DNA from: an uncultured Armatimonadetes bacterium
GTDB taxonomy: Bacteria > Armatimonadota > Fimbriimonadia > Fimbriimonadales > Fimbriimonadaceae
Assembly: GCA_963800805.1 (NCBI GenBank)
Contig: CAWDCK010000014.1
Span: 18,170 to 82,169 of the forward strand
Direction of reading: 5' to 3'
Length of the DNA: 64,000 bases
Of the stretch, positions 2,871 through 27,084 are shown in pieces. The notes under the pieces were generated by a model that worked only from the letters and a program-made list of their open reading frames with translations, had not been told where the DNA came from and ran no database searches. The position numbers and the translations under genes were made by a program. Position 1 is the stretch's first letter. Every line of letters begins with the position of its first letter.

Positions 2871-4598
2871 CTAACCCGATTCGAGTCGAATAAGCTCGTC
2901 TCTAACAAACGTTTCCAACCCAGAATCTCCCGCTGCATGTCCAAGAGCCCGAGAATAAGCCTGCCGAGCCCCCATGGAATCTCCCGCCGTCAACATCGTC
3001 CTTCCCGCTTCAACGTACAAACCAACGGCCTGCTCCTTTATCTGCTGAGCGCGCTCCGGTACGGTCATTGCCGCCAATGCAAAGGCCTTATCCGCATTGG
3101 TCCATCTCTCTCTTCTATCCGAAGCTATATCCGTCGTCGCCCCCTCCCAAACTCCTGATTCAGCCTGCAACATTGTAGCGTTAAGATCAAAATCAGCAAC
3201 TGGATCTGGTGCAACGTCTCGCGTCTCCATGCCAACATTAGGAACCTGCTGTGCAACAGATTCCGGCTGAGGAGATGTTGCCGGCACTGTCGGAATCATA
3301 TTCTGCTGGCTTTGAGCCTTGCCCGGTATAGATTCTGCCGCCGCGCTCATCCCTACAATCAAAAGCCAAGCCATCGCCCCAACTACCAAAAAGGCAAAAA
3401 GAATCTTCCAAAACAATGCTTTCGTTTCCGGCTTAAACAAGGGTTGCCGAGGCGGTGGAGGATAGTAAACCGGAACCTGCATCCCCGGGCCCGGAGTCAC
3501 CCCGCCATACGGAGTCGTTTGATACGGCACTTGCGCTCCCCCATATTGCGGAGGTGAACCATATGGTTGAACTGGTGGAGCCGTCACACCAGAACTAGGA
3601 TACATCGGGTTCGGCGTGCCGTAAGGAGTGTAAGGTTGCTGATAAGCGGGAACAGGCATTTGCCCATAGTTGTAAGGACTTTGAACCTGATGCGGCAACC
3701 CCGCAACTCCTGCCGAATTCGTTAGACTGGGTGGAGCTTGCCCATAATTCGAGACACCCGGGTCAAGAACTGAAGATCCAAAACTTCGCTGAACTTGCTT
3801 CAATTCCTGAATAAATTCTTCCGCCGAATCTTGCCTTAAAATCGGACTCTTGTCCAAAGCTTTATTGAGTGCCATCCAAAGCAAATGATTAGCCTGCGCT
3901 GGCTGCGGAGGATTGAAATTCATAATGGCATAGGTAATAGCCATCACATTATCTCCCGTAAAAGGCTTTGTTCCCGAGAGCATTTCGTAAAGAACAATCC
4001 CCATGCTAAAAATATCACTGCGCTGATCAATCTCCTTCCCATTGATCTGCTCCGGAGACATATAACTGGGAGTTCCAAAAACCTGGCCATCCATGGTCAA
4101 ATTCGGTTCAAAAGTTAATCGAGCAATGCCAAAATCCGTAAGCTTAATGGTGCCATCGCTCAAGATCTGAATGTTTTCTGGCTTAACATCCCGATGAACA
4201 ACCCCGTGCTTATGAGCAAAGCCTAAAGCTCTTAAAACTTCAATGGCAATTTCCAAAGCCCGTTCTGGAGAAACTGAGCCATCATCAAGCGTCTTTCGCA
4301 GAGTTTCTCCGTCCAAAAACTCCATCGCCAAGTAATAACGATCCGCTTCCTCTGCAACTTCGTAAACAGTAACAATGTTGGGATGAACAAGGCTCCCGGC
4401 CGCTTTCGCTTCTCGTAAAAATCGTTTAACTCGATCTTCCTTTTGAGAAGTCGATGCCCCTTGCGGCATTGCCAATTCCTTAACGGCCACACGACGATTC
4501 ATAATCGCGTCGTAGCCCTCATAAACTATGTCATTAGAGCGCGCAATTTCCCGAATAATTTCATACTTTCCTAATTGAGAAGGTATTCCTTGGCTCAT
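2871..4598 (-). CDS. Hanks-type Ser/Thr protein kinase with P/Y/G/Q-rich linker, TM helix and extracytoplasmic helical domain
   Basis: VAVKEL, HRDVKPEN, DFGIA and GTPSYMSPEQ motifs; TM segment LFWKILFAFLVVGAMAWLLIVGM. Confidence 0.93.
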   Translation of the reverse strand: MSQGIPSQLGKYEIIREIARSNDIVYEGYDAIMNRRVAVKELAMPQGASTSQKEDRVKRFLREAKAAGSLVHPNIVTVYEVAEEADRYYLAMEFLDGETLRKTLDDGSVSPERALEIAIEVLRALGFAHKHGVVHRDVKPENIQILSDGTIKLTDFGIARLTFEPNLTMDGQVFGTPSYMSPEQINGKEIDQRSDIFSMGIVLYEMLSGTKPFTGDNVMAITYAIMNFNPPQPAQANHLLWMALNKALDKSPILRQDSAEEFIQELKQVQRSFGSSVLDPGVSNYGQAPPSLTNSAGVAGLPHQVQSPYNYGQMPVPAYQQPYTPYGTPNPMYPSSGVTAPPVQPYGSPPQYGGAQVPYQTTPYGGVTPGPGMQVPVYYPPPPRQPLFKPETKALFWKILFAFLVVGAMAWLLIVGMSAAAESIPGKAQSQQNMIPTVPATSPQPESVAQQVPNVGMETRDVAPDPVADFDLNATMLQAESGVWEGATTDIASDRRERWTNADKAFALAAMTVPERAQQIKEQAVGLYVEAGRTMLTAGDSMGARQAYSRALGHAAGDSGLETFVRDELIRLESG

Positions 4599-4705: not shown

Positions 4706-5362
4706 TTAAACAGAGATTGTGGAAAGAGAGTCCAAAACTGAAAACTCCGCTTCAGTTTTGCTCCTCACTTCGTCCACTGTAACCCCTGGAGCTGTTTCTT
4801 TTAAAACCAAACTTCCGTTTTCAACCTCGAAAACTGCTAAATCCGTAATGATTAAATTCACGCAATTCTTTCCCGTTAATGGGAGCGAACATTCTTTCAG
4901 AATCTTTGGATCTCCGTGTTTATTCGTATGATCCATCACGACGACTACGCGCTTAACACCCGCTACTAAATCCATGGCGCCTCCCATTCCCTTCACCATC
5001 TTTCCAGGAATCATCCAATTCGCCAAATCACCTTCTCCGCTCACTTCCATTGCCCCCAAAATCGTCAAATCAATAGCTCCTCCCCGAATCATTCCAAAAC
5101 TTGTCGCGCTATCAAAATAAACTGTTCCCGGAATCTCGGTAATCGTTTGTTTACCGGCATTGATCAAATCTGGATCAGCCTCTCCCTCATATGGAAACGG
5201 ACCCATGCCAAGCATGCCATTCTCGCTTTGCAAAACAACTTCCACGCCCTCTGGAATATAGTTCGCAACTAAAGTCGGAATTCCAATTCCTAGATTTACA
5301 TAAAACCCATCTTGCAGCTCCGCCGCTGCCCTTTTCGCCATTTCATCGCGAGTCAGTGCCAT
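4706..5362 (-). CDS. scoB: 3-oxoacid CoA-transferase subunit B
   Basis: [16 protein letters not shown] (catalytic Glu) and GMGGAMDLV motifs. Confidence 0.93.
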
Positions 5363-5586
5363 GACCTTATTCTACTTGAACCGGATTCCAGGAAAACATA
5401 GCCGGCGCAATGCCCAATACTCGCAATTCTAATCAAATCCTCAACAGTTTCCAATCCGATGAAATGCCAGAATTTGCGTTTCTCTAGCCCGCTATCAAAA
5501 TCGAAAGCCCAAAATCAATTTAATCAGATTCAGCTTTTCTCACAAATCAAAAATCGAAACTACCAAAAAGTAAATCTTAACTCTCT

Positions 5587-6294
5587 TTAGTCGTGGGTGC
5601 GAACGGTAAGTCGCTCGATTCGCTTTTCATAATTTTGGCCAAGAACAAGCTTATCAACATGAATCCCTGGAGTATGAATCTCATCAGCATCAAAAACGCC
5701 GAAGTCAACAACTTCTTCTACTTCAGCAATAGTGACCTTCCCTGCTGCCGCCATCATAGGATTAAAATTGCGCGCCGTCTTTCTAAAAACCAAGTTCCCC
5801 CAGCGATCCGCTTTCCAAGCTTTAACAATCGACAAATCCGCTTTCAATGCCGTCTCCAAAACATACCATTCGCCATCAAACTGCCGAGTTTCTTTCCCTT
5901 CCGCTACCAAAGTGCCATACCCAGTTTTCACATAAAACGCCGGAATCCCGGCTCCACCAGCTCGACATCGCTCGGCTAAAGTTCCCTGCGGATTAAATTC
6001 AAGCTCTAACTCTCCGCTCAAATATTGCCGCTCAAACTCCGCATTTTCCCCCACATAACTTGAAATCATCTTCTTGATTTGCCGAGTTTGCAATAACAAT
6101 CCAAGACCAAAATCATCAACTCCGCAGTTATTACTAATAACCGTAATGTCTTTCACTCCAGAATCTCTCAAAGCCAAAATGAGGTGCTCAGGAATTCCAC
6201 AAAGGCCAAATCCCCCGGACATAATCGTCATTCCATCAAACAACAATCCGTCTAATGCAACCGTCGCATCACTCACTAACTTATCCATACCCAT
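5587..6294 (-). CDS. scoA: 3-oxoacid CoA-transferase subunit A
   Basis: [23 protein letters not shown] and IHTPGI motifs. Confidence 0.93.
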
Positions 6295-6366: not shown

Positions 6367-7812
6367 ATGAACACCAACAAGCTTGACCGCACAACAATTT
6401 TGGTGTCCCTTCTTTGCTTTTTGCCTTATCTGGGGTTCTGGATTTACGGCCTTACAGACTTAGATGAAGGGTTTTATGGAGCCGTCGTCACCGATATGCT
6501 CCGCCGAGGAGACTGGATCACTCCCACCTATAACGGAATTCCTTGGTTTGAAAAACCAATTCTTTCTTACTGGTTAGCAATGCCGGGGTTATCAATGTTC
6601 CCCAGTAATGATTTCATCGCGCGCCTTCCATCTCTCATTTGCACCCTGGCCGCAACTTTTATCATTTTCAGATTTGCCAAAAAACACTTCGATTTGCCAA
6701 CCGCTCGCCTGGCAGCTCTCATTTTTTCTTCAAGCCTTCTGGTTGTTGCCCTCGGCCGACTCATGATGACCGACCCCGCTCTCAATCTCTGCATCATCAT
6801 CGCGCTAACAACCTTTTACGACTCGCTTACAGAGAAAACACAGTCAAAAAGATTGATAACCGCCGCCGCCCTCGGCTTCGCTGTCTTAGCCAAGGGCCCA
6901 GTTGCCCTTGTGCTTTTTGTCTTGATTGCCGGACTAACTTATTGGCGACTACCTTCTCTCCGCCCACATTTCAGATCCTTCTGGGTGCTAGGAACACTCC
7001 TCATGATCGCCGTCATCTCAACGTGGTACATCCCCGCATATTTGGCGAACCCCACAACATTCATCCAACAATTCTTAATCGAACAAAATATTGGAAGGTT
7101 CAAAGGCGGCGATGTCGCCCACACCGTTCCCTGGTACCTCAACGGAATCTATTTCCCTATCATTGCCATTCTTGCCATGGCGCCATGGATTGCATCGGCT
7201 CATTCCGCAAGTTGGCATAACACAAAAACCGGAACCGGAAACCCTCAAAACCTGAGAAAATTCCTATGGATTTCCGCCCTGGTAGTCATCGGATTCTTTA
7301 CGATTAGCAAAACCAAACTCCCCCACTATATCCTTCCCGGTATCGCCCCTCTTGCTTTGCTTGCCGCCGAGGCAATATCACATCGACACCCCAAAAAACG
7401 ACCCGAAACCTTTTGGCTCAAAGCCGCCGGAATTTGGGCGACAATCGTATTCATCATTGCAAACGTTGCTCTCTTTTCCTACCACCAAAAGCAATTTGCC
7501 GAAATCCAATCAATTGCCAAATTCCTTCAAAAACAAAGCCAAGATGTAACGATCCTCAGCCTCGGAAGAAACGGATCAGATCCAACAATTAAACTCACTC
7601 TCGAACAGACTTCCCACCCCTCAATTCTTTTCTACTTGCGAAGAACCGTCACAATGACAAGCCAGGAAGATCTCCCAAATGCAAAACCAGGAAGTTACGT
7701 AATTTCAAGAAAAACATCAGGATGGCAACCCCATTTACAATACGTGTTAGTCAACCCATCAAACTACAATTGGAAATCTAACTCAGAGTTCAATCTCTTT
7801 CAGATTCAGTAA
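6367..7812 (+). CDS. ArnT/PMT-like GT-C membrane glycosyltransferase (family 39/83)
   Basis: DLDEGFY, WFEKPIL, LAKGPVAL and KTKLPHYILP motifs; many TM helices. Confidence 0.85.
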   Translation: MNTNKLDRTTILVSLLCFLPYLGFWIYGLTDLDEGFYGAVVTDMLRRGDWITPTYNGIPWFEKPILSYWLAMPGLSMFPSNDFIARLPSLICTLAATFIIFRFAKKHFDLPTARLAALIFSSSLLVVALGRLMMTDPALNLCIIIALTTFYDSLTEKTQSKRLITAAALGFAVLAKGPVALVLFVLIAGLTYWRLPSLRPHFRSFWVLGTLLMIAVISTWYIPAYLANPTTFIQQFLIEQNIGRFKGGDVAHTVPWYLNGIYFPIIAILAMAPWIASAHSASWHNTKTGTGNPQNLRKFLWISALVVIGFFTISKTKLPHYILPGIAPLALLAAEAISHRHPKKRPETFWLKAAGIWATIVFIIANVALFSYHQKQFAEIQSIAKFLQKQSQDVTILSLGRNGSDPTIKLTLEQTSHPSILFYLRRTVTMTSQEDLPNAKPGSYVISRKTSGWQPHLQYVLVNPSNYNWKSNSEFNLFQIQ

Positions 7813-7815
7813 AAA

Positions 7816-7891
7816 TGGTGGGCCCAGCGGGACTTGAACCCGCGACCAAGCGATTATGAGTCGCCTGCTCTAACCACTGAGCTACAGGCCC
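7816..7891 (-). tRNA. tRNA-Ile2 (anticodon CAU, lysidine type)
   Basis: GGGCCTGTAGCTCAGTGGTTAGAGCAGGCGACTCATAATCGCTTGGTCGCGGGTTCAAGTCCCGCTGGGCCCACCA. The D and anticodon arms match the E. coli ileX type rather than Met/fMet. Confidence 0.9.
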
Positions 7892-7917
7892 AAATTTCAA
7901 TCTAAGAATACCTCCCG

Positions 7918-8610
7918 CTAACTGCCTCGCTGGTCCGTTACCCTAACCCCATCTCGCGGTTTTGTCGAAAACCAATCCTTTGCAAATCGATAATTGGGAA
8001 TTCTAGAAAACACAACATCTCGAATTTTTTGCCGGCCCGATCCAAAAAAACCAGAATTCTCAACATCATATTCAACCCATAGAATAGCGTTATGAGACAC
8101 AAAAACTCGACAATCCGATTCCAGTTTGTGCCGGAAAGAAAACACAACCCCATCTTCCAGTGTCTCCGTTTTCACTTCGCCTTCGCCAACAAAAGCATCA
8201 AATGCCTCCTTTCCCGCAAAAGCCTGAAGCAATAAACCTCCATCGTCCGGCGCCTTAGATCCAGGACGAACTTCGATAAACGATTTTGGAGCCACCATCA
8301 GAGTCACGTCCTGATTCAAATCATCAATTAAAAAATTCTTCCCATCACTAATCCCTCGCGCCATATCACCAAAAAAACCGTTGTATTCCAATCTATATTT
8401 GCGACCATCTCGACCCAAATCGGTCATTCCGTCCAACTCCCAACCAACCGTCCCTTCCGATTGACGAAACTGCTCATAAACAATCAATCCCTTAAACTTA
8501 GAATGAGCAACAAAGGCTTCCAAAAGCTCCGTTCTCCCATCCAAGTTCCCCCAACTCAAAGCCGGAATCACTAAAGTTAAAATCAAAACAATTCGCGAGA
8601 GAAACCTCAT
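7918..8610 (-). CDS. Hypothetical secreted protein, possibly LolA-like fold
   Basis: ATG at 8610 gives a signal peptide (MRFLSRIVLILTLVIPALSWG). The RLEY...ISDGK pattern recalls LolA-type proteins (inference). The ORF-track extension to 8703 overlaps alkA. Confidence 0.6.
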   Translation of the reverse strand: MRFLSRIVLILTLVIPALSWGNLDGRTELLEAFVAHSKFKGLIVYEQFRQSEGTVGWELDGMTDLGRDGRKYRLEYNGFFGDMARGISDGKNFLIDDLNQDVTLMVAPKSFIEVRPGSKAPDDGGLLLQAFAGKEAFDAFVGEGEVKTETLEDGVVFSFRHKLESDCRVFVSHNAILWVEYDVENSGFFGSGRQKIRDVVFSRIPNYRFAKDWFSTKPRDGVRVTDQRGS

Positions 8611-8661
8611 AAACCAACTATACCGATCAAAAATCAACCAATGGTATGGTGAATCACGATC

Positions 8662-9282
8662 ATGCTGAATAATCCAACCTTTGTCAAAGAAGCCGTTGAT
8701 CATCTCACAAAATGCAAATTCCTAGCCCCCATCATCGAAAGCCAACCAATCCCAGAATATTCAATTACAACCGATCCCTTCTATTTCCTCACAAGAGCCA
8801 TTGTCTTTCAGCAACTCTCAGGCAAGGCCGCATCAACAATTTTTGCTCGATTCGAATCAAAAATTAAAAATATCCAGCCAAATACAGTTCTCACATTCAC
8901 AATCGAAGAACTAAGATCAGTCGGAATTTCTCGACCGAAAGCCACCTACATTCTAGATCTTGCAACCAAAATTGAACAATCTCAAATTCATCCTGAAAAG
9001 TGGTTTGAGCTCTCCGAGCCAGAACTCAGAAAAGAACTCACTTCCGTAAAAGGTCTTGGCGAATGGTCAGCCGACATGTTCCTTATTTTCGCCCTTTGCA
9101 AACCAGATATCTGGCCCGTAACAGACCAAGGAATTAGAAACGCCGCAAAACTCTTAACCTCCTCGGAAACCCATCTCACTCCCGAAAAACTCAATGCAAT
9201 TGCTGACCAATTCCGACCATATCGTTCAGTTGCCGCTCACTACTTTTGGCGTGCTGTCGATGTAAGAACAACCCAAAAGTAA
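8662..9282 (+). CDS. alkA: DNA-3-methyladenine glycosylase II (AlkA/HhH-GPD family)
   Basis: IVFQQLSGKAA, HhH VKGLGEWSADMFLIF, WPVTD and RPYRSVAA motifs. Confidence 0.88.
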   Translation: MLNNPTFVKEAVDHLTKCKFLAPIIESQPIPEYSITTDPFYFLTRAIVFQQLSGKAASTIFARFESKIKNIQPNTVLTFTIEELRSVGISRPKATYILDLATKIEQSQIHPEKWFELSEPELRKELTSVKGLGEWSADMFLIFALCKPDIWPVTDQGIRNAAKLLTSSETHLTPEKLNAIADQFRPYRSVAAHYFWRAVDVRTTQK

Positions 9283-9296
9283 AGTAAAATAGGCTC

Positions 9297-9909
9297 GTGA
9301 AAAGGCCAATCCTACTTCTCATAGCAATGCCACTATCCGCATTTGCCCAAGAAAACAATGGTCAAGCTCTCTGCCCGCTCTGAGCCGCCGGCGGATATTC
9401 AGTCAGTTCGACTGAATCAAGTCAGTGGATGATTAACTCCATCCACATTCCTAACAGTGCCACTTCTACCGAAACCTTTTATTTGGTATCGTCCAAATTC
9501 CACAGTTAGCTTAGGAATTGCCCATCTTTTTAAGCAAAACAGCTTCCGATACCTAGCAACTCTAAAGCTATTCAATGAATCAGAAAACTATCCTGGCGTC
9601 TTTGCTTCCGCCGGAGTTCAAGGAATCGGAACTGGTAATCCGGGATACTCATTAGTGGCTGAAAAAAACTTCCAAATTCAAAGTAACTCCCTCAACATTT
9701 TTTCTGGAATAGGTTTCAGATCCAATGAAAACCACGCCCATCTTGTCGGCGGTGCCAAATGGGGTCTCACCAAAAATCTAACAATCGGAATCCAATCTGA
9801 TGGGCACCAATACTATCCATTCATAAACCAATCCGAAGGAACATCCATCTTCGGCATTTACCTTATTGGTGGCAAAACACCTGCATTTCAAGTTGGTATA
9901 AGGTTCTAA
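9297..9909 (+). CDS. Candidate selenoprotein: signal peptide + CxxU + beta-barrel-like domain, interrupted by in-frame TGA (9381-83) and a +1 frameshift (likely TTTT 9477-80)
   Basis: GTG 9297 reads MKRPILLLIAMPLSAFAQENNGQALCPL(TGA)AAGGYS...TETF. Removing one T joins it to the 9457-9909 frame (IWYRP...FQVGIRF), giving about 203 aa. A SECIS-like hairpin lies at 9397-9417. Confidence 0.65.
9397..9417 (+). promoter_or_regulatory. Bacterial SECIS-like stem-loop
   Basis: Perfect 8-bp stem ATTCAGTC/GACTGAAT with a 5-nt loop AGTTC containing GU. The stem starts 13 nt after the TGA and the loop G is 23 nt after it. Confidence 0.6.
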
Positions 9910-9916
9910 ATAAACG

Positions 9917-10501
9917 CTATAGCCGAACCTGGCCACGAAGTTTTTCCAGAGTTTTTTCTCCAACTCCAGATACATAAGCCAAATCCTCTACCGATTGAAA
10001 TGGCCCATTTTCTTCTCGATACTTGATAATCGCTTCCGCCAAAACCGGACCAACATCCGGCAAACTCTCAAGCTCTTTCAATGATCCCAAGTTAATTGAA
10101 ACCGGACCCCCATTCTGAACCGGCGGACCACTCAAATCAAGACCACGGAATGGAACTGTAATCTGCATACCATCCTTAACCGGCGAGGCCAAATTAACCC
10201 CTAATTCATTAGCATCGGGCAGCATCCCTCCCGCTAAGTCAATGACATCCACTACTCTAAAGTCAGACCTAACCTTATAAACTCCGGGACGTTGAATGGC
10301 CCCGGCAATATAAACCTGGATCTCTTCCACCTCGTGCTGCGTTTCCGGAACTCTCGGTTGAGAACTTGGCTCTTCAACTTTCAAACCCGATCCTTGAGGC
10401 TGAATCTGTGAACCCCATGCGGCTAATCCAAGTAAAACTAAAAACCCAGCTCCAAAAACGCCAGCTTTTTGCTTCCCCGATAGTTGATCCCAAAGGCTCA
10501 T
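9917..10501 (-). CDS. comEA: ComEA family DNA-binding protein (TM + SLBB + HhH)
   Basis: VYIAGAIQRPGVY (SLBB), INLGSLKELESLPDVGPVLAEAII and VSGVGEKTLEKL (HhH). Confidence 0.88.
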   Translation of the reverse strand: MSLWDQLSGKQKAGVFGAGFLVLLGLAAWGSQIQPQGSGLKVEEPSSQPRVPETQHEVEEIQVYIAGAIQRPGVYKVRSDFRVVDVIDLAGGMLPDANELGVNLASPVKDGMQITVPFRGLDLSGPPVQNGGPVSINLGSLKELESLPDVGPVLAEAIIKYREENGPFQSVEDLAYVSGVGEKTLEKLRGQVRL

Positions 10502-11942: not shown

Positions 11943-12071
11943 ATTCTACTCGGTTCACTGATCCTAACCATTATGTGGAAAAGTTTTCATTTTTTTTATT
12001 CAGACCGCTCCTCATTTCGCCTAGCCACCGTCTGAAAAGCAATCGAGCCGAAAGATCGGCTAAATATTGCT

Positions 12072-16412: not shown

Positions 16413-17215
16413 AGCACATCAATAATTCCACTAAAGACGCGCCTTGGCGATGATGAAACTTCAACTGGTAAGTCCCAGCGATCTATTACTATTCCTAAGG
16501 TTCCTCCTCCCGATGCCACTCTAATTGTTCCTGTCACTCCCGTTTTTCGAGAATGGACAACGGCAGAAGCAATTGCTCCAGTTCCACATCCAATGGTTTC
16601 TCCAACGCCGCGTTCCCAGATTCTGACTTTGATTTCCCGGTCATTCAAAACTTTTGTCCACATGACCGTCGTTTTCTGCGGAAAAATACTTGCATTTTCA
16701 ATCTGTCTACTTATTTTTTCAAACGCAGGTGATTCCGGCAATTCATCAACCATGACTACAAAGTGAGTACTGCCAGTGCTAAGGGCCGTTCCGGAGACAC
16801 CAAAAATCTCTTTATCTACAAACTCTACTGTTGAGCAAACTGGAACTAAAATCGGATCAAACTCCGCCGCCGGCATAATGGTAGATACATTTCCATTACT
16901 TATCTGAGTTCGAATCGTCCTTCCATTTTGGCGTTGCTCAAAATGAGATCCAACCCAACCTTCCGTGAAAGCGTACAGCCCAGAGCACCTCAGTCCATTT
17001 CCACAAAAGTCTTCCGATCCATCAGGATTAAAAAAACGGACTCTTACCGATCCTGATTCCGGAGCTACTACTATCAATCCATCATGACCAATTGAAAACC
17101 TTCTGTCGGCAGTGAATTGTGCGAAGTATTCTGGGCTCAAGCCCCCTAAATCAATCTCTCTCACCAGGACAAAATCATTACCAATAGTTTGAGTCTTTAC
17201 AAAAGGCACTATCAC
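16409..17215 (-). CDS. dapF: Diaminopimelate epimerase
   Basis: GNDF, FCGNGLRC and ERGVGETIGCGTGA motifs. The likely GTG start at 17215 forms a GTGA overlap with the upstream stop. Confidence 0.92.
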   Translation of the reverse strand: MIVPFVKTQTIGNDFVLVREIDLGGLSPEYFAQFTADRRFSIGHDGLIVVAPESGSVRVRFFNPDGSEDFCGNGLRCSGLYAFTEGWVGSHFEQRQNGRTIRTQISNGNVSTIMPAAEFDPILVPVCSTVEFVDKEIFGVSGTALSTGSTHFVVMVDELPESPAFEKISRQIENASIFPQKTTVMWTKVLNDREIKVRIWERGVGETIGCGTGAIASAVVHSRKTGVTGTIRVASGGGTLGIVIDRWDLPVEVSSSPRRVFSGIIDVL

Positions 17216-19167
17216 GGTGTTAAGTGCTCCAAACGATAACTTGTCAAGTCGAGAGTGGATCGCAACCATGTCCCATCAGGGCATACAAGTGCAAACCACC
17301 AGGCCGATGGTCGATAGCCAGCTTTTTTGAGTCCTTCTGTAGCCACAATTGCTTCCCTAATCAATCGCAATCGCATCATTTCTGCCTCTAAACCAATATC
17401 ACGTCGCCTTTCTCTGATTCGCACCATTTCATGCGATGAAACTAGCGCTTCTTGAGCCATCGCTTGGTTTTGATATTGCGCCCTCAATTCTGTCAGTTGC
17501 AAATCAACTTCGAGCAAATCAATGTCAAATTGTGCCCTTCTCGCTAACTCAGAATCATCTGGACTCTGTTCAAAAATCGCACTTCGCCAATGCTCTCCTT
17601 TCGCGTGCTGAAGCGCATTCCGCCTCGATCTCGCCGCTCTCATTTTCAGGACGGTCTTCTTTTTTCGTCGTTTACTTTCGGAAAGTTCAAAAGCCAAAGT
17701 CTCAAGAAAATCCTGCATTCCTTCGTATTCCTGGGCGAGACACTTCCATTGACCACCAACTTGATCTTGTAAGAATCTTAAAAGCTCAAGTGGTCTGTTC
17801 AAATCTTTGAGCGATTCTAGTTGCGTTGCCTGTGTCGCCGAGACTTCTCGCCATCGAACCGCAAAACTTGGTGCACTTAGCTCCAAAGTGCCAAAAGGAC
17901 GTTGTAAAGGTTCTGGCAACTTTAACCATGCGCAACAGTTTGTCATTGCATCCCAAGGCTCATATTGGACTCTCATGATCGGATTAAGCCTCATTTCAAA
18001 TCCCGCCGACACTAGATTTCTCGCCATTTCCCCAGACCGCCATACATAGGCGCTGGCGCCTTCATGAAAGACAAATACAAACTCTTTTGCCAGCATGAGG
18101 ATGAGAGTAATTGCCTTACCAACTAAAACGATTTCTGATCCAAATTTTCTTTCTAAAACTTCTGCCAATTCTAGAGCAGATTCCGGTCGCTTTTTATACG
18201 AAAATCCCACTGGCGATTTCGTCATCAACAAGCCGCCTTTGGATCCCAACCTTAACGTACCACGACCAATTCCAGGAATATAGACATCAAATGGCAACGA
18301 ACCAGCTCCAAACCTATCTAATGGATAAATATCCGAACCAGCAACACAACTGTCGTAAGCGGTCTCTGTCTGCATTCGTGTCTTGGGATCAAGAAATAAA
18401 TCAAGTATTTTGAATCGTTCAAGATGCGATGTCTTAGTATTAAACTTTAAAAGCTGAGTGGTAGCGGAAGTGTCAAAATCAAGTGATTCCCCAATCAACA
18501 TTTCAGATATGGGCCGTATAAGCTCTTGAAAGAAGCTGCCCAAACTATCGTCGTCAACACGATCCACAGCGTCACAAACCATCGCCATAAATCTGTCGGC
18601 TGCTAGCAATGAGTCTGCATGGTGCTCTCCAGAAACTAAACGCAAACTTTCATCTATAGCCCATTTCAAAGTGTCATAAATAACCGGAAAAAGCTTAGAA
18701 AGTTTCTTTTCAGCGGTTATTCGCGATTCTTTGGATAACGAAACAACTCCACGCCAACCCCAGGCTTCCGTAATTTCATCTAAAAAACCGGGTCGAAGAT
18801 GCTCAACTTTGCTAACCTTTCCTCCTGATGCCGTTAATGCTTCACGAGTTACAACAGTCTCCGAACCGAAAAGGCAGCTCATTTCGCCTGCCGCGCTCCA
18901 TAAGTTTTGGGTCGTCGTGTCGTTGTGAGGCAATGCCACAAATCCTTGCAAATCTCTCTTACTTGTGAATTTCGCGAAGTAATCCGTATCGTGTACTCCC
19001 GCTACGAATTTTCTCTGAGATCCTAGTTGCCGAATCCTTTGCAGAACTCCCGCTTTCATGGGCTCATCCCAAAAAACTGTCTGACCTAAGGCAAGTAGCG
19101 CAGCATCTGGAGCGATTCGATCCAGTTCTGCTAATACACCTTTTAAGCAATTACAGTCAGATTCCAT
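17212..19167 (-). CDS. Large hypothetical protein with C-terminal coiled coil (possible remote BshC-like)
   Basis: 651-aa open frame with natural composition, translationally coupled to dapF. The function is inferred only. Confidence 0.75.
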   Translation of the reverse strand: MESDCNCLKGVLAELDRIAPDAALLALGQTVFWDEPMKAGVLQRIRQLGSQRKFVAGVHDTDYFAKFTSKRDLQGFVALPHNDTTTQNLWSAAGEMSCLFGSETVVTREALTASGGKVSKVEHLRPGFLDEITEAWGWRGVVSLSKESRITAEKKLSKLFPVIYDTLKWAIDESLRLVSGEHHADSLLAADRFMAMVCDAVDRVDDDSLGSFFQELIRPISEMLIGESLDFDTSATTQLLKFNTKTSHLERFKILDLFLDPKTRMQTETAYDSCVAGSDIYPLDRFGAGSLPFDVYIPGIGRGTLRLGSKGGLLMTKSPVGFSYKKRPESALELAEVLERKFGSEIVLVGKAITLILMLAKEFVFVFHEGASAYVWRSGEMARNLVSAGFEMRLNPIMRVQYEPWDAMTNCCAWLKLPEPLQRPFGTLELSAPSFAVRWREVSATQATQLESLKDLNRPLELLRFLQDQVGGQWKCLAQEYEGMQDFLETLAFELSESKRRKKKTVLKMRAARSRRNALQHAKGEHWRSAIFEQSPDDSELARRAQFDIDLLEVDLQLTELRAQYQNQAMAQEALVSSHEMVRIRERRRDIGLEAEMMRLRLIREAIVATEGLKKAGYRPSAWWFALVCPDGTWLRSTLDLTSYRLEHLTP

Positions 19168-22297: not shown

Positions 22298-23416
22298 TCA
22301 TTTAATCTTCAGAACAGGAGCATAGAGAAATTGACGAATACCTTTTTCGTTCAGACCACCAAAGTCCCACACCAGTCGAAACTCCGGACTAAAGCGAACC
22401 TGATATTGACTTAACTCTTTTCCAGTCAATGGCATCCCGGGCGTCTCAGTTTTTAAAAATTTAAATTGATCTGCTCGGTAGTACTTTCCAAAAACGTCCG
22501 ATTCAAACTCATCACCAAAAACATACGCAACATCCGATTCAATTCCGTCTTTCCCAAGTCGCTCCATGAGAGAACTGGCGATATCAGTTTTCCCAGGATT
22601 TTCAATTACTGAAATGCCAATGCCAGGATCAGCTACAGCTTCAACTATTTCTAAAAGATCTTGAGGATTAAACGCTCCAGAAACAAAAACTTTAGAATTC
22701 AGCAGTCTGGGATCTATTTTTATTGCCTTTTGATTCAAAGCACCAGCGCGCTTTACAAACTCTTCAAGCTCAATTATCTTGCCTTGTCCATAGTCAATCG
22801 AACCCTCCCTTAAATTATTGATCGGACCCATTATCTGAGATGAATTGGCATTTTGTGAGTATGAATCAACAGTTTTTTTAGGCGTTCGACCATCGACCCA
22901 TGTTTCACAAATCTTGGATCCATTTAGATCGGTCACATTCGCTCCAAATGTAACTGATAAAAATAACTTTTGGGGGCTATTTCCTGCGATGGCTTTATCC
23001 CAACCTCCAGGAGGCATATTTGCCATTCTCAATATTCCAGTACGGAGTTCTGAGTCCAGATCATTCAATGAAATCCCTTCTGACTTCATCCTATACAAAT
23101 CTTCGCTCCTCATTTTCTGGAGCCAACCGATGGTTTTTTCCCGATCCAGCTCTGTCCGAATTGGACTCAAATCAGGCATTAAAACATAATGACCACTGAC
23201 TGCTTTGATTTGACATTGACTACTACTTGCCAATACTTCCAAGCCATACATTCCCATCGGCGTGCTGGGAAACTTTCGAATTGGACACTTCTCGGGCATT
23301 ACAAAAACAATGCTGGCTCTTTCACGCTGGCAATAAGAAGCAAGAAGTTGTTCTTGTGATTGTTCAGAAGCCGTTAACGACTCTATCAACAATGCCGGAA
23401 TCAAAAAGTTAATCAT
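22298..23416 (-). CDS. Hypothetical exported protein
   Basis: 372-aa open frame with a hydrophobic N-terminus; ATG immediately follows the upstream TAA. Confidence 0.7.
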   Translation of the reverse strand: MINFLIPALLIESLTASEQSQEQLLASYCQRERASIVFVMPEKCPIRKFPSTPMGMYGLEVLASSSQCQIKAVSGHYVLMPDLSPIRTELDREKTIGWLQKMRSEDLYRMKSEGISLNDLDSELRTGILRMANMPPGGWDKAIAGNSPQKLFLSVTFGANVTDLNGSKICETWVDGRTPKKTVDSYSQNANSSQIMGPINNLREGSIDYGQGKIIELEEFVKRAGALNQKAIKIDPRLLNSKVFVSGAFNPQDLLEIVEAVADPGIGISVIENPGKTDIASSLMERLGKDGIESDVAYVFGDEFESDVFGKYYRADQFKFLKTETPGMPLTGKELSQYQVRFSPEFRLVWDFGGLNEKGIRQFLYAPVLKIK

Positions 23417-24059: not shown

Positions 24060-25880
24060 CTAATCTGAAGATCGTCGTTCGGCAACTCTACGCTCACTAT
24101 GATCCAAAACCTTTTTACGGAATCTTAAAAGCTTCGGTGTACATTCTAAAAGTTCATCATCTCGCAACCAACTCAGTGCTTGCTCCAAACTAAACTCTTT
24201 GTGAGCCTTCAAAGCAGTAGTGTCATCGCTAGTTGCAGACCTCATATTGTTTGCTGCTTTAGATTTCGTCACGTTTACAATCATGTCGTCATCCCTTGCG
24301 TTCTGGCCAATAATCATTCCGGGATAGACATCTGTAGAAACTGGATAGAAAAATATTCCCCGTTCCATCACGTCTTCGTATGCGTAACGAGTAATTTTTC
24401 CAGCATCTTTAGAAATTAGACTTCCGTTGACTCGACTTTGAATCGAGCCCCGATACTTTTCATAACCTTCGAAAACCGTTGACATAATGCCAGTTCCTCG
24501 AGTTAAAGTTAAATATGTTGACCGGAAACCAATGATTCCACGCGTCGGAATAGAGGCCGTTAAATGACTTCGACCATTTCCGAGTGTTCCCATGTCTTGA
24601 ATTTCCCCTTTCCTTCGGCTCAATTCTTCCATGACTGAACCAAGAGCTTCATCCTCAAATTCACAAGTTAATTGTTCAATTGGCTCAAGGCGTCCAAGTT
24701 CATTTTCTCGGTAGATAACTTGAGGACGTGCAATAGCCATTTCAAAGCCTTCTCGACGCATAGTTTCGATCAAAACGGATAATTGCATTTCACCACGGGC
24801 AGCAATTCGCACAGTATCAGCCGGCGCAGTCTTATCAATCGTCAAACTGACGCTAACTGTTTCTTCTTTCTCCATTCGCTCCCGAATTTTTTGAATAGTT
24901 AAGAATTTCCCACCATCTTTGCCGCTCAAAGGCGAAGTGTTTGCATAGAAATTCATCGTCAACGTGCTAGGCTCAACTTCGATTCTTGGCATTGGCTCAA
25001 CAAATTGAGCGTCGCATACAGTATCACCAATCAATACGTCACTGATTCCCGCAATCATAACAATTTCGCCGGCTTCTCCGACTTCAATTTCTTCGAGCTT
25101 TAATCCAACATATCGCCAAACTTTTGTAACGTTAAACCCAATATGCTTGCCATCGACGTTAACCTGAGTCATGCGATCGCCGGCCCGAATTCTGCCCCGC
25201 AATAACTTACCGCCAAACATTTTCCCCAAGTAATCGCTATGGTCGAGATTATTGACCTGCAGTTTTGATGGACCTTCTTCCTGAACTTTAGGTGGAGGAA
25301 TCTCTCGGACAATGGCTTCAAATAAGTGGCGCATATCAGAATCGGTATCTTCCGGATTCAACCGAGCAAATCCCCCTGCTCCACTTGTGTAAATCACAGG
25401 AAAATCTAAATCTTCTTCTTCTGCACCTAAGTCGATAAATAAGTCAATCGTCTTGTCATATGCGTCTGCCGGACGGGCACCTTCTCGATCAATTTTATTA
25501 ACACAAACAATGACCTTACAGCCATTGTCCAATGCCTTTTTCAAGACAAACCTAGTCTGCGGCATTGGCCCTTCGTTGGCATCAACAATAAGCAAAACGC
25601 CGTCAACCATGCTCATGACCCGCTCAACTTCTCCACCAAAATCGGCGTGACCAGGAGTGTCAACTATGTTAATCTTTGTTCCACTGTAGTTGCAACTTGC
25701 AACTTTGGAAAGAATCGTAATTCCTCTTTCGCGCTCAAGATCATTACTGTCCATCATTCGATCGCTAACAGCTTCATTCTCGCGAAACATTCCCGATTGT
25801 TTAAAGATCGCATCGACCAACGTTGTCTTTCCATGATCAACGTGAGCGATAATTCCAAGGTTACGAATGTTTTCAGACAT
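24060..25880 (-). CDS. typA: Translational GTPase TypA/BipA
   Basis: IAHVDHGKTT, ERGITI, DTPGHADFGGEVER and NKID motifs. The likely start is ATG 25880 (MSENIRN). Confidence 0.97.
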   Translation of the reverse strand: MSENIRNLGIIAHVDHGKTTLVDAIFKQSGMFRENEAVSDRMMDSNDLERERGITILSKVASCNYSGTKINIVDTPGHADFGGEVERVMSMVDGVLLIVDANEGPMPQTRFVLKKALDNGCKVIVCVNKIDREGARPADAYDKTIDLFIDLGAEEEDLDFPVIYTSGAGGFARLNPEDTDSDMRHLFEAIVREIPPPKVQEEGPSKLQVNNLDHSDYLGKMFGGKLLRGRIRAGDRMTQVNVDGKHIGFNVTKVWRYVGLKLEEIEVGEAGEIVMIAGISDVLIGDTVCDAQFVEPMPRIEVEPSTLTMNFYANTSPLSGKDGGKFLTIQKIRERMEKEETVSVSLTIDKTAPADTVRIAARGEMQLSVLIETMRREGFEMAIARPQVIYRENELGRLEPIEQLTCEFEDEALGSVMEELSRRKGEIQDMGTLGNGRSHLTASIPTRGIIGFRSTYLTLTRGTGIMSTVFEGYEKYRGSIQSRVNGSLISKDAGKITRYAYEDVMERGIFFYPVSTDVYPGMIIGQNARDDDMIVNVTKSKAANNMRSATSDDTTALKAHKEFSLEQALSWLRDDELLECTPKLLRFRKKVLDHSERRVAERRSSD

Positions 25881-25944
25881 GACGGGAAGCCGTAAGGTAC
25901 CGCTTTTGAGTCTTTTCCAAATCAGACCAGACCCGACTACAGGT

Positions 25945-27036
25945 TCAAACTTGAGATAATCGAGCCTTTCGAGCACGAAAGAACTTCAATGCCAAGCCAC
26001 CGAAGAATAGAATTCCACCTCCAATCCAAAGTAATTTCAAACCGTTTTCTTGTGGATTTTCCAAAGAAGTTGAAACGCGGAATGGAGGAACCGGAACGTA
26101 ATCATCAAAAAAGTCCTTATCAGTATCTGGATGCTGACCCATTGAAAGCTTTTGAGAAACAAAATCGGTGTAATGAGCACGAAACTCATCGCCGTTTTTG
26201 CGCATTTCTCCAAAGTTTTTCAAATTACTCTCTTTAAACTTATCCTCTAACATGTAAGAAAAAGTAAATCGGTTTAAGAATGCATCTTCGAATCGAGAAC
26301 GTTGGCCTTCAGATTCGAGTTCTGAGATTCTGAGGTCAATCAAATGAGCTGTCTGCCCGGCATCTAGATCTAATGAAATTTTCAACAAATGGAACATATC
26401 AATCGAGTTCCAGCCGTTGCCAATTGCCATGATTCCTAAGACTCCCTCTCGAAAAGCTTTTCGATCTTCATCCGTTTGCAAAAATTCTTCAAAAAGGTCT
26501 GAATTGGGTTCTAATAATTCCATAAGGACGGCAATTTGAACCCACTCACGGCCAAAATGAGCATCGGGATTGATTTCCACCGCTAACTTAAGATCATCAA
26601 TTCCTCGTTGCACATTTTTGCGGAAATCTTCACCATTTGCTGCCAATCCCATATGAGCGTAAAACGTTCCGCGATTGGCATACAATCGATATTCAGCTTC
26701 GGCTCTTGCTTTTTCATCTAGTTTCAATTTGGAAAGAGCAATTTTCTTTTTAACCATCAAATCAATTGCATCGGCATGTCGATTCAACTTGTCGCATGCA
26801 ACGGCGGCATCATCGAACTCGCCAAGACTCCAATCCGATTCCGGTTTCAGTTTTAGCCGTTCCAGCCGTATTTCGTAGTACTTATCCGGGGGCCTCTCAA
26901 ATCGCCCCGATACTGCATCTTGGATTCCTGGCAACCCTTTGAGCTCAAATTTAAGCGTATCAATATCCCAAGCGCAACCGAAAACCTGAATTGATCCAAT
27001 TAAAAGGAATAGTAGGCAAGTTAAAATTCTCCACAT
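25945..27036 (-). CDS. Hypothetical exported TPR-like protein (CAWDxDTL N-terminus, C-terminal TM anchor)
   Basis: Signal peptide, helical repeats (YANRGTFYAH...AVEINPDAHFGRE), and a C-terminal TM followed by a basic tail. Confidence 0.7.
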   Translation of the reverse strand: MWRILTCLLFLLIGSIQVFGCAWDIDTLKFELKGLPGIQDAVSGRFERPPDKYYEIRLERLKLKPESDWSLGEFDDAAVACDKLNRHADAIDLMVKKKIALSKLKLDEKARAEAEYRLYANRGTFYAHMGLAANGEDFRKNVQRGIDDLKLAVEINPDAHFGREWVQIAVLMELLEPNSDLFEEFLQTDEDRKAFREGVLGIMAIGNGWNSIDMFHLLKISLDLDAGQTAHLIDLRISELESEGQRSRFEDAFLNRFTFSYMLEDKFKESNLKNFGEMRKNGDEFRAHYTDFVSQKLSMGQHPDTDKDFFDDYVPVPPFRVSTSLENPQENGLKLLWIGGGILFFGGLALKFFRARKARLSQV

Positions 27037-27084
27037 AACGATTGTTCTCAATTTCGCTTGACGTGAGAAAGAAAAGTTTCTAAA

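Follow-up and report, generated by a model that had tools for sequence, protein, structure and literature searches.

We conclude, with a probability of about 0.85, that the window (the whole 64-kb stretch of DNA analysed here) contains a single gene that belongs to an undescribed, small family of secreted β-barrel proteins restricted to Armatimonadota, and that an in-frame UGA in this gene is recoded as selenocysteine (Sec). Recoding would follow the standard bacterial route: a hairpin just 3' of the UGA would recruit SelB with its Sec-tRNA(Sec), and the ribosome would go on in frame 0 to ...ETF and then into the barrel. The decoding step, in which SelB and Sec-tRNA(Sec) acting on the hairpin would read UGA 9381 as Sec, appears well supported by the comparison of related loci. 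The parts of the gene are collected in Table 1, together with related genes in other genomes.

The GTG start, the signal peptide, CPL-TGA, the hairpin, the open frame beyond it, the TTTT run and the 150-aa ORF of the original prediction all match the letters of the window. GTG 9297-99 starts MKRPILLLIAMPLSAFA-QENNGQAL, and comparable signal peptides are present in the relatives, mostly, by our reading of the sequences, with A-Q-E or A-x-A before the mature N-terminus. Frame 0 is open as far as a TAG at 9507-09. The 150-aa ORF lies in frame 1 (9457-9909), is shut off upstream by TGA 9430 and terminates with the β-signal FQVGIRF followed by TAA 9907-09. The genes on either side are unrelated, namely an HhH-GPD glycosylase (8662-9282) and a convergent ComEA-like gene (9917-10501). 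Elsewhere in the window, the long minus-strand ORFs at 7918-8703, 17212-19167, 22298-23416 and 25945-27051 have no Pfam match at E<=0.001.

Table 1. Positions of the putative selenoprotein gene and its parts in the window, and of associated genes at related loci (positions after an L number refer to that locus).
Feature	Position	Strand	Description and basis
Whole gene	9297..9909	+	203 aa if UGA is Sec and one base of 9477-80 is dropped; translation
GTG start and 17-aa signal peptide MKRPILLLIAMPLSAFA	9297..9347	+	Sequence read directly; predicted cleavage before QE
C-P-L-U motif (TGC CCG CTC TGA)	9372..9383	+	Putative Sec codon UGA at 9381-83
Frame-0 coding segment 3' of UGA, AAGGYSVSSTESSQWMINSIHIPNSATSTETF	9384..9479	+	Aligns to family consensus VAGGYxASSAxxxxWxxNTVYAPxTxTxAETF
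SECIS-type hairpin	9397..9417	+	Stem 9397-9404 with 9410-9417, loop AGUUC 9405-09; covariation
TTTT run with one surplus base, frame 0 to +1	9477..9480	+	Sister-strain contigs one base shorter
Frame-1 segment, most of predicted 12-stranded β-barrel (second strand onward)	9481..9909	+	AF2 of Cys-type homologue P0005; Foldseek
Thioredoxin-like neighbour	L019:9273-9941		
UxxU paralogue	L019:8648-9283		
UxxU paralogue	L015 ~7932-8561; L017 ~1035-1670; L018 ~7524-8153		
UxxU paralogue	L021 ~3481-4104; L030 ~8236-8844		
UxxU paralogue	L023 3760-4374	-	

Conservation across the TGA column

A database search with the joined protein, in which U was read as C and one T was removed, produced 58 homologous proteins with E-values down to 6e-55. 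No Pfam domain was found in any of the 58, and the named ones are annotated as 'hypothetical protein' from Fimbriimonadaceae or unnamed bacteria. Most are 130-176 aa long. Many of them are annotated as starting directly after the TGA or further inside, and seven start with M/V-AGG[Y/F], exactly one residue past the TGA column. The one full-length protein among them, P0005 (211 aa), reads ...AQNQAH-CPLC-AAGGY at this position.

The DNA of homologues was read in two metagenome places and in 30 species-representative genomes, the latter located by the family motif GVQGIGTGN. One of these genomes (L033) is cut off before the region. Thirty-one related loci, 29 of them in species-level genomes and two in metagenome places, encode a signal peptide, then C-P-L-TGA-[V/A/M/I/T]-[A/G]-G-G-[Y/F] and then the barrel in a single frame, and TGC occurs at the column only in the P0005 locus (L002/L003) among the homologue loci read as DNA. 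The genome records are those of Armatimonadota (Fimbriimonadaceae, 'Chthonomonas', Armatimonadetes) except for L008, a 'bacterium' MAG, and one contig labelled as archaeal; the complete genome CP021423.1 is among the carriers. The locus on a 321-kb contig labelled 'Methanoregulaceae archaeon' MAG (L014, JADZEW010000026.1) is nearly identical to that of the Fimbriimonadaceae MAG L016 and shares its tRNA-Met neighbour; the contig is probably bacterial and mis-binned.

Distant relatives (P0062, P0068, P0085, P0096 and P0100) carry Cys at the column, as CPLC or CPIC, and distant full-length members read CPLCVAGGF, CPICVANGY, CPLCAAAGY, CPLCPGGGY and CPLCSGSG at the motif. Only nine columns are invariant in an alignment of 31 full-length sequences that includes distant members, and C, P and the U/C position account for three of them. 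It is highly probable that C-P-[L/I]-[U/C] is an invariant motif of the family and sits ~10-40 residues past the signal-peptide cleavage site on a flexible N-terminal tether. The family is small: a profile search across 1.84 billion representative proteins returned just 45 clusters.

These data agree with what had been predicted for the CxxU column, with TGA in the 31 related loci and Cys in the Cys-type relatives, and for the similarity across it, as alignments of homologues are conserved on both flanks in one frame. The homologues follow frame 0 past TGA 9381 and not frame 1, which rules out the reading from ATG 9358 with TGA 9430 that the original prediction had itself disfavoured. Standard annotation had been expected to split the gene, and gene callers indeed truncate every Sec-type member examined, which explains why the family has been invisible as a selenoprotein.

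Coding conservation after the UGA is also evident between strains. We compared the window with contigs of closely related strains from public metagenomes and found that all four SNPs located between the UGA and 9477 leave the protein unchanged in frame 0 and alter it in both other frames. Of the nine SNPs past 9480, six are silent in frame +1. TGA closes 16 of the 60 long ORFs of the window and is therefore not globally reassigned, ruling out this explanation for the in-frame codon. Judged by sequence comparison, the locus appears to combine the features of a bacterial selenoprotein gene, with an in-frame UGA, Cys homologues and coding conservation on both sides.

The hairpin downstream of the TGA

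The original prediction placed a SECIS-like hairpin after the TGA. In the window this is a perfect 8-bp stem (ATTCAGTC/GACTGAAT) with the loop AGTTC that begins 13 nt past the TGA. Perfect 8-bp hairpins on the plus strand of the window number seven compared to 5.1 in shuffled sequence, and the fold z-score of this one is only -1.43. Within the window alone the hairpin is thus not beyond chance, so the case rests on the relatives, and it is the comparative data that give it significance.

Across the 32 Sec-type sequences (the 31 related loci and the window), the loop invariably starts exactly 24 nt after the U of the UGA. Its sequence is RGUUC in 31/32 and GGUGC in the remaining one (L035), leaving the G, the first U and the final C invariant. 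The 8-bp structure is paired in 85% of alignment cells, and each of its eight pairs has changes on both sides. Pairing rises to ~98% in the six inner pairs, and one column shows GC, AU, CG, GU, UG and UA. Covariation amounts to 0.513 versus 0.149 in shuffled alignments (0/500 shuffles reach the observed value) and does not exceed 0.088 once the partner strand is shifted by 1-3 columns. The helix is not preserved in the Cys-type locus L002, where only four of the eight pairs form in the same register. Bacterial SECIS elements carry a G at loop position 1 or 2, a rule quoted in PMC13582414, and the loop keeps this G while the stem is conserved with covariation, in line with the prediction. Taken together, the stem-loop, with its loop G and its short fixed distance 3' of the UGA, appears to be under selection.

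No Rfam family matched the hairpin at its gathering threshold or at E<=10. A regular-expression scan and a covariance model (R1) revealed no convincing further selenoprotein gene with the same hairpin in ~0.55 Mb; R1 missed the hairpins of the paralogue described below, probably as the GG-TAY coding flank is also part of the model. The fixed 24-nt spacing and the RGUUC loop would provide a lineage-specific SECIS signature that could be used for finding more selenoprotein genes.

The surplus base and rival readings of the locus

At the family junction ...ETF-[ILVF]-W-Y, the window reads GAA ACC TTT T/AT TTG G. Sister strains from three runs in three studies are one base shorter here and have a single intact frame, X1 reading GAAACCTTTTTTTGG (ETFFW) and both X2 and X10 reading GAGACTTTCATTTGG (ETFIW). 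Removal of one T, as originally proposed for joining the two frames, restores the family junction and brings the window into line with these strains. As the sister strains lack the surplus base, we attribute it to a local error of the assembly or to a frameshift mutation of very recent origin, at roughly 60:40.

If the frameshift is real, the gene would be dead in the window genome and would yield only a 70-aa truncated product or nothing, a serious alternative that we place somewhat short of an even chance. It draws on the absence of the surplus base from three independent strains and on the rarity of one-base indels relative to sister strains in the first 20 kb, where the others are at 12002 (intergenic), 15358 (at the very start of an ORF) and 1489 (in a single strain), so that the assembly is not generally error-ridden; in addition, no run with the exact window variant at 9477-80 was found among public runs. 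Set against this, the surplus base is the sole lesion, the invariant family residues downstream are all intact, most SNPs downstream remain synonymous in frame 1, and a strain-mixture consensus or a homopolymer error could give the same surplus base. The difference at 12002 consists of an extra G in runs X1, X2 and X3, between a PurE-like ORF (by sequence reading) and the next gene, and perhaps marks a further minor error or variant of the window assembly. Indel polymorphisms separate the X3 strain from the window, with 404 nt (5302-5707) and 19 nt (at 1685) missing from X3.

Neither SelA, SelB and SelD (tblastn with E. coli queries) nor tRNA-Sec (ARAGORN) was found in the 64-kb window or in ~547 kb of related loci; since these cover only small parts of the genomes (64 kb here and ~20 kb per relative), the absence says little either way. 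The sole weak SelB-like match in the window, at 24060-25976 on the minus strand, proved by Pfam to be a TypA/BipA GTPase (GTP_EFTU 2.9e-56, BipA_C 4e-37). In the literature on Sec in Armatimonadota or Fimbriimonas, the only relevant study we found is one on hydrogenases from 2026, which reports that some Armatimonadota MAGs carry selC together with Sec-type hydrogenases, that tRNA-ReC-like genes are present in 5/5 Armatimonadota genomes with UXXU-type hydrogenases, and that tRNA-ReC is enriched in UXXU genomes (PMC13582414).

The UGA might be read as Cys, wholly or partly, by a tRNA of the tRNA-ReC (SelC*) type to give CPLC, which we regard as improbable. Such decoding likewise uses SelB and a SECIS, its tRNA genes occur in all five of the Armatimonadota UXXU-hydrogenase genomes, and a UxxU paralogue adjoins the CPLU barrel family in seven loci. 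On the other hand, canonical selC was found alongside tRNA-ReC, and the genomes in question are not shown to be of lineages that carry the barrel family (PMC13582414). Moreover, the TGA and the SECIS have been kept in the 31 related loci even though a single TGA-to-TGC or TGA-to-TGT change would give Cys directly, which argues that Sec is what selection preserves.

It is very improbable that TGA 9381 is a true stop separating a tiny signal-peptide ORF from an unrelated downstream ORF, with the hairpin arising by chance or serving in regulation. This would fit the stop that gene callers annotate, the many database homologues that start after the TGA and the chance-level hairpin statistics of the window, but 31 related loci conserve both frame and sequence through the TGA, there are full-length Cys-type homologues, the covarying hairpin keeps a constant distance to the TGA, and the downstream ORFs would be left to encode an outer-membrane barrel with no signal peptide. 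A programmed +1 ribosomal frameshift on UUU-U at 9477-80, where tRNA-Phe could slip on the run, is excluded for practical purposes because the shift is not conserved, the sister strains and the 31 related loci being in a single frame there, and the A site holds neither a stop nor a rare codon.

The predicted barrel, its neighbours and known systems

An AF2 model of the Cys-type homologue P0005 contains 12 β strands (residues 52-210). The barrel has a pLDDT of ~90 in the initial model, rising to ~95 when the alignment is deepened. Even then the CPLC segment reaches only 56-61 and has no secondary structure, and for this reason the motif segment looks like a flexible tether N-terminal to the barrel. 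Because AF2 does not place the motif confidently, we infer both where it lies with respect to the barrel and what chemistry it has. No thioredoxin-like domain was found in the barrel protein, the motif lying in the unstructured tether rather than in a thioredoxin-fold helix. Foldseek searches against the PDB gave outer-membrane barrels as all top matches (FapF, KdgM, NanC and a designed 12-stranded barrel), with E-values from 8.5e-5 (FapF) to 1e-3, TM scores of 0.62-0.65 normalised to KdgM and identities of 7-15%. The C-terminal part, originally described as β-barrel-like, is thus predicted by the AF2 model and Foldseek to be a 12-stranded outer-membrane barrel. In the full-length alignment the family C-terminus reads ...G-x-R-F; signal peptide, a predicted closed, even-stranded antiparallel barrel and an aromatic C-terminal β-signal are the features expected of an outer-membrane barrel.

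At the sequence level, the protein has no Pfam match at E<=1, and neither have the distant members; NCBIfam release 20 gave 0 matches, even at E<=1, and no PDB sequence matched. Its tie to KdgM/NanC or to any Pfam porin family is one of shared fold class only. The internal motifs of the family, GVQGIGTGNPGY, EKN and G-x-G-x-R-S-N-E, are unusually strong for a porin, and we know of no counterpart for the invariant GVQGIGTGNPGY, EKN and RSNE motifs.

Clustering of neighbouring ORFs across the loci revealed two recurrent partners of the barrel gene. The first, adjoining it in nine loci (L015, L017, L018, L019, L021, L023, L030, L031 and L034), encodes a TlpA-like thioredoxin of ~220 aa. It combines a signal peptide with a TlpA/ResA-type domain containing WATWC[KGEI]PC (Thioredoxin_8, 1.6e-14) and with a YHS-like module, CxxC...YYFC, that misses the Pfam cut-off (YHS, 3.4e-5). 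Based on gene order, this protein is probably a periplasmic reductase partner of the barrel. The second, present in seven of these nine loci, is a paralogous barrel gene whose N-terminus reads P-T-TGA-T-G-TGA-P-G-E-G (U-x-x-U). Its product is distantly related to the CPLU barrel family (21-25% identity). A hairpin of 7-9 bp with the loop AGUUC or GGUGC follows, and in six loci a script placed the start of the loop exactly 24 nt past the second TGA; the seventh, L023, was read by eye. With its two TGAs and the same SECIS signature, the paralogue is a second candidate selenoprotein gene in these genomes and likely represents a second undescribed selenoprotein family in which one SECIS would serve two UGAs. 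It is possible that co-resident tRNA-Sec and tRNA-ReC split the two close UGAs between Sec and Cys. Within the 64 kb of the window, neither the TlpA-like partner nor the paralogue was found.

Directly upstream of the UxxU barrel gene in L017 and L019 lie an ArsR-family regulator and a 25-aa Cys-rich ORF, MSITKCPCCEGECTCPKECPNCDCC. In L019 the regulator (HTH_5, 1e-16) and then the Cys-rich ORF occupy 8158-8647, and L017 has an equivalent region. The two hint at a connection with metals.

As to function, we tentatively suggest that the Cys-Sec pair forms a periplasm-facing redox or soft-metal/chalcogen-binding centre that is reduced by the TlpA-like thioredoxin. Such a centre would act on something passing through, or handled at, the barrel. 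The main alternative is a structural or gating selenenylsulfide. More speculative, and rather unlikely in our view, is that the barrel family and the UxxU paralogue are 'seleno-porins' whose tethered Cys-Sec or Sec-Sec centre, served by a dedicated periplasmic YHS-TlpA reductase, captures or reduces a thiophilic metal, metalloid or chalcogen at the outer membrane; the adjoining ArsR regulator and Cys-rich peptide of some genomes would, with the same reserve, be part of this picture. If true, it would amount to a selenium-dependent redox or metal system of the envelope with no characterised counterpart.

Returning to Sec incorporation, the paradigm of a bacterial selenoprotein gene with a SECIS inside the ORF is E. 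coli fdhF, and the bSECIS rules reportedly go back to Zhang and Gladyshev in 2005. The gene described here resembles bacterial selenoprotein genes in its in-frame UGA, in the Cys homologue at the same column and in a stem-loop that lies shortly downstream within the coding sequence with a G in the first two loop positions. It differs from the known ones in belonging to a new protein family and in its short helix and 5-nt RGUUC loop, the hairpin being known here as a helix of 6-8 bp alone, with neither a lower stem nor a bulged U shown. With it, Sec use would extend to Fimbriimonadaceae-type Armatimonadota.

Barrels of the TonB-dependent receptor and MtrB-PioB types are much larger than the ~160-aa, 12-stranded barrel predicted here. 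Prokaryotic selenoprotein families are tabulated with InterPro-based domain IDs in a 2026 review (PMC13188914, Table 1), and the outer-membrane types that we find there are the TonB-dependent receptor FCYXU type (NF049945, CxxU) and the GSU2204/MtrB-PioB family (NF041027). As far as the entries of that table go, the CPLU barrel family appears to be absent from the known selenoprotein families, because no Pfam or NCBIfam model matches it. Both tabulated types likewise have Sec in an outer-membrane β-barrel, and the FCYXU type shares the CxxU arrangement; in addition to the difference in size, the family described here is set apart by a motif on an N-terminal tether and by the lack of an NCBIfam match. 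Outer-membrane proteins with Sec are rare, and the family would add one more.

KdgM/NanC (4fqe, 2wjq) and FapF (5o68) share the predicted fold with the barrel family, but lack the Cys/Sec motif and are only 7-15% identical to it. The MtrB-type barrels of metal reducers have a conserved N-terminal CXXC motif and so likewise place a redox- or metal-type CXXC near the barrel N-terminus; they differ in barrel size, and the resemblance is a lead only. The neighbouring thioredoxin-like protein fits the pattern of TlpA/ResA/ScsC-type reductases and their clients, a pairing drawn from gene order only, and barrel, UxxU paralogue and adjacent TlpA-like reductase would together make up a compact three-gene module for the use of Sec in the cell envelope.
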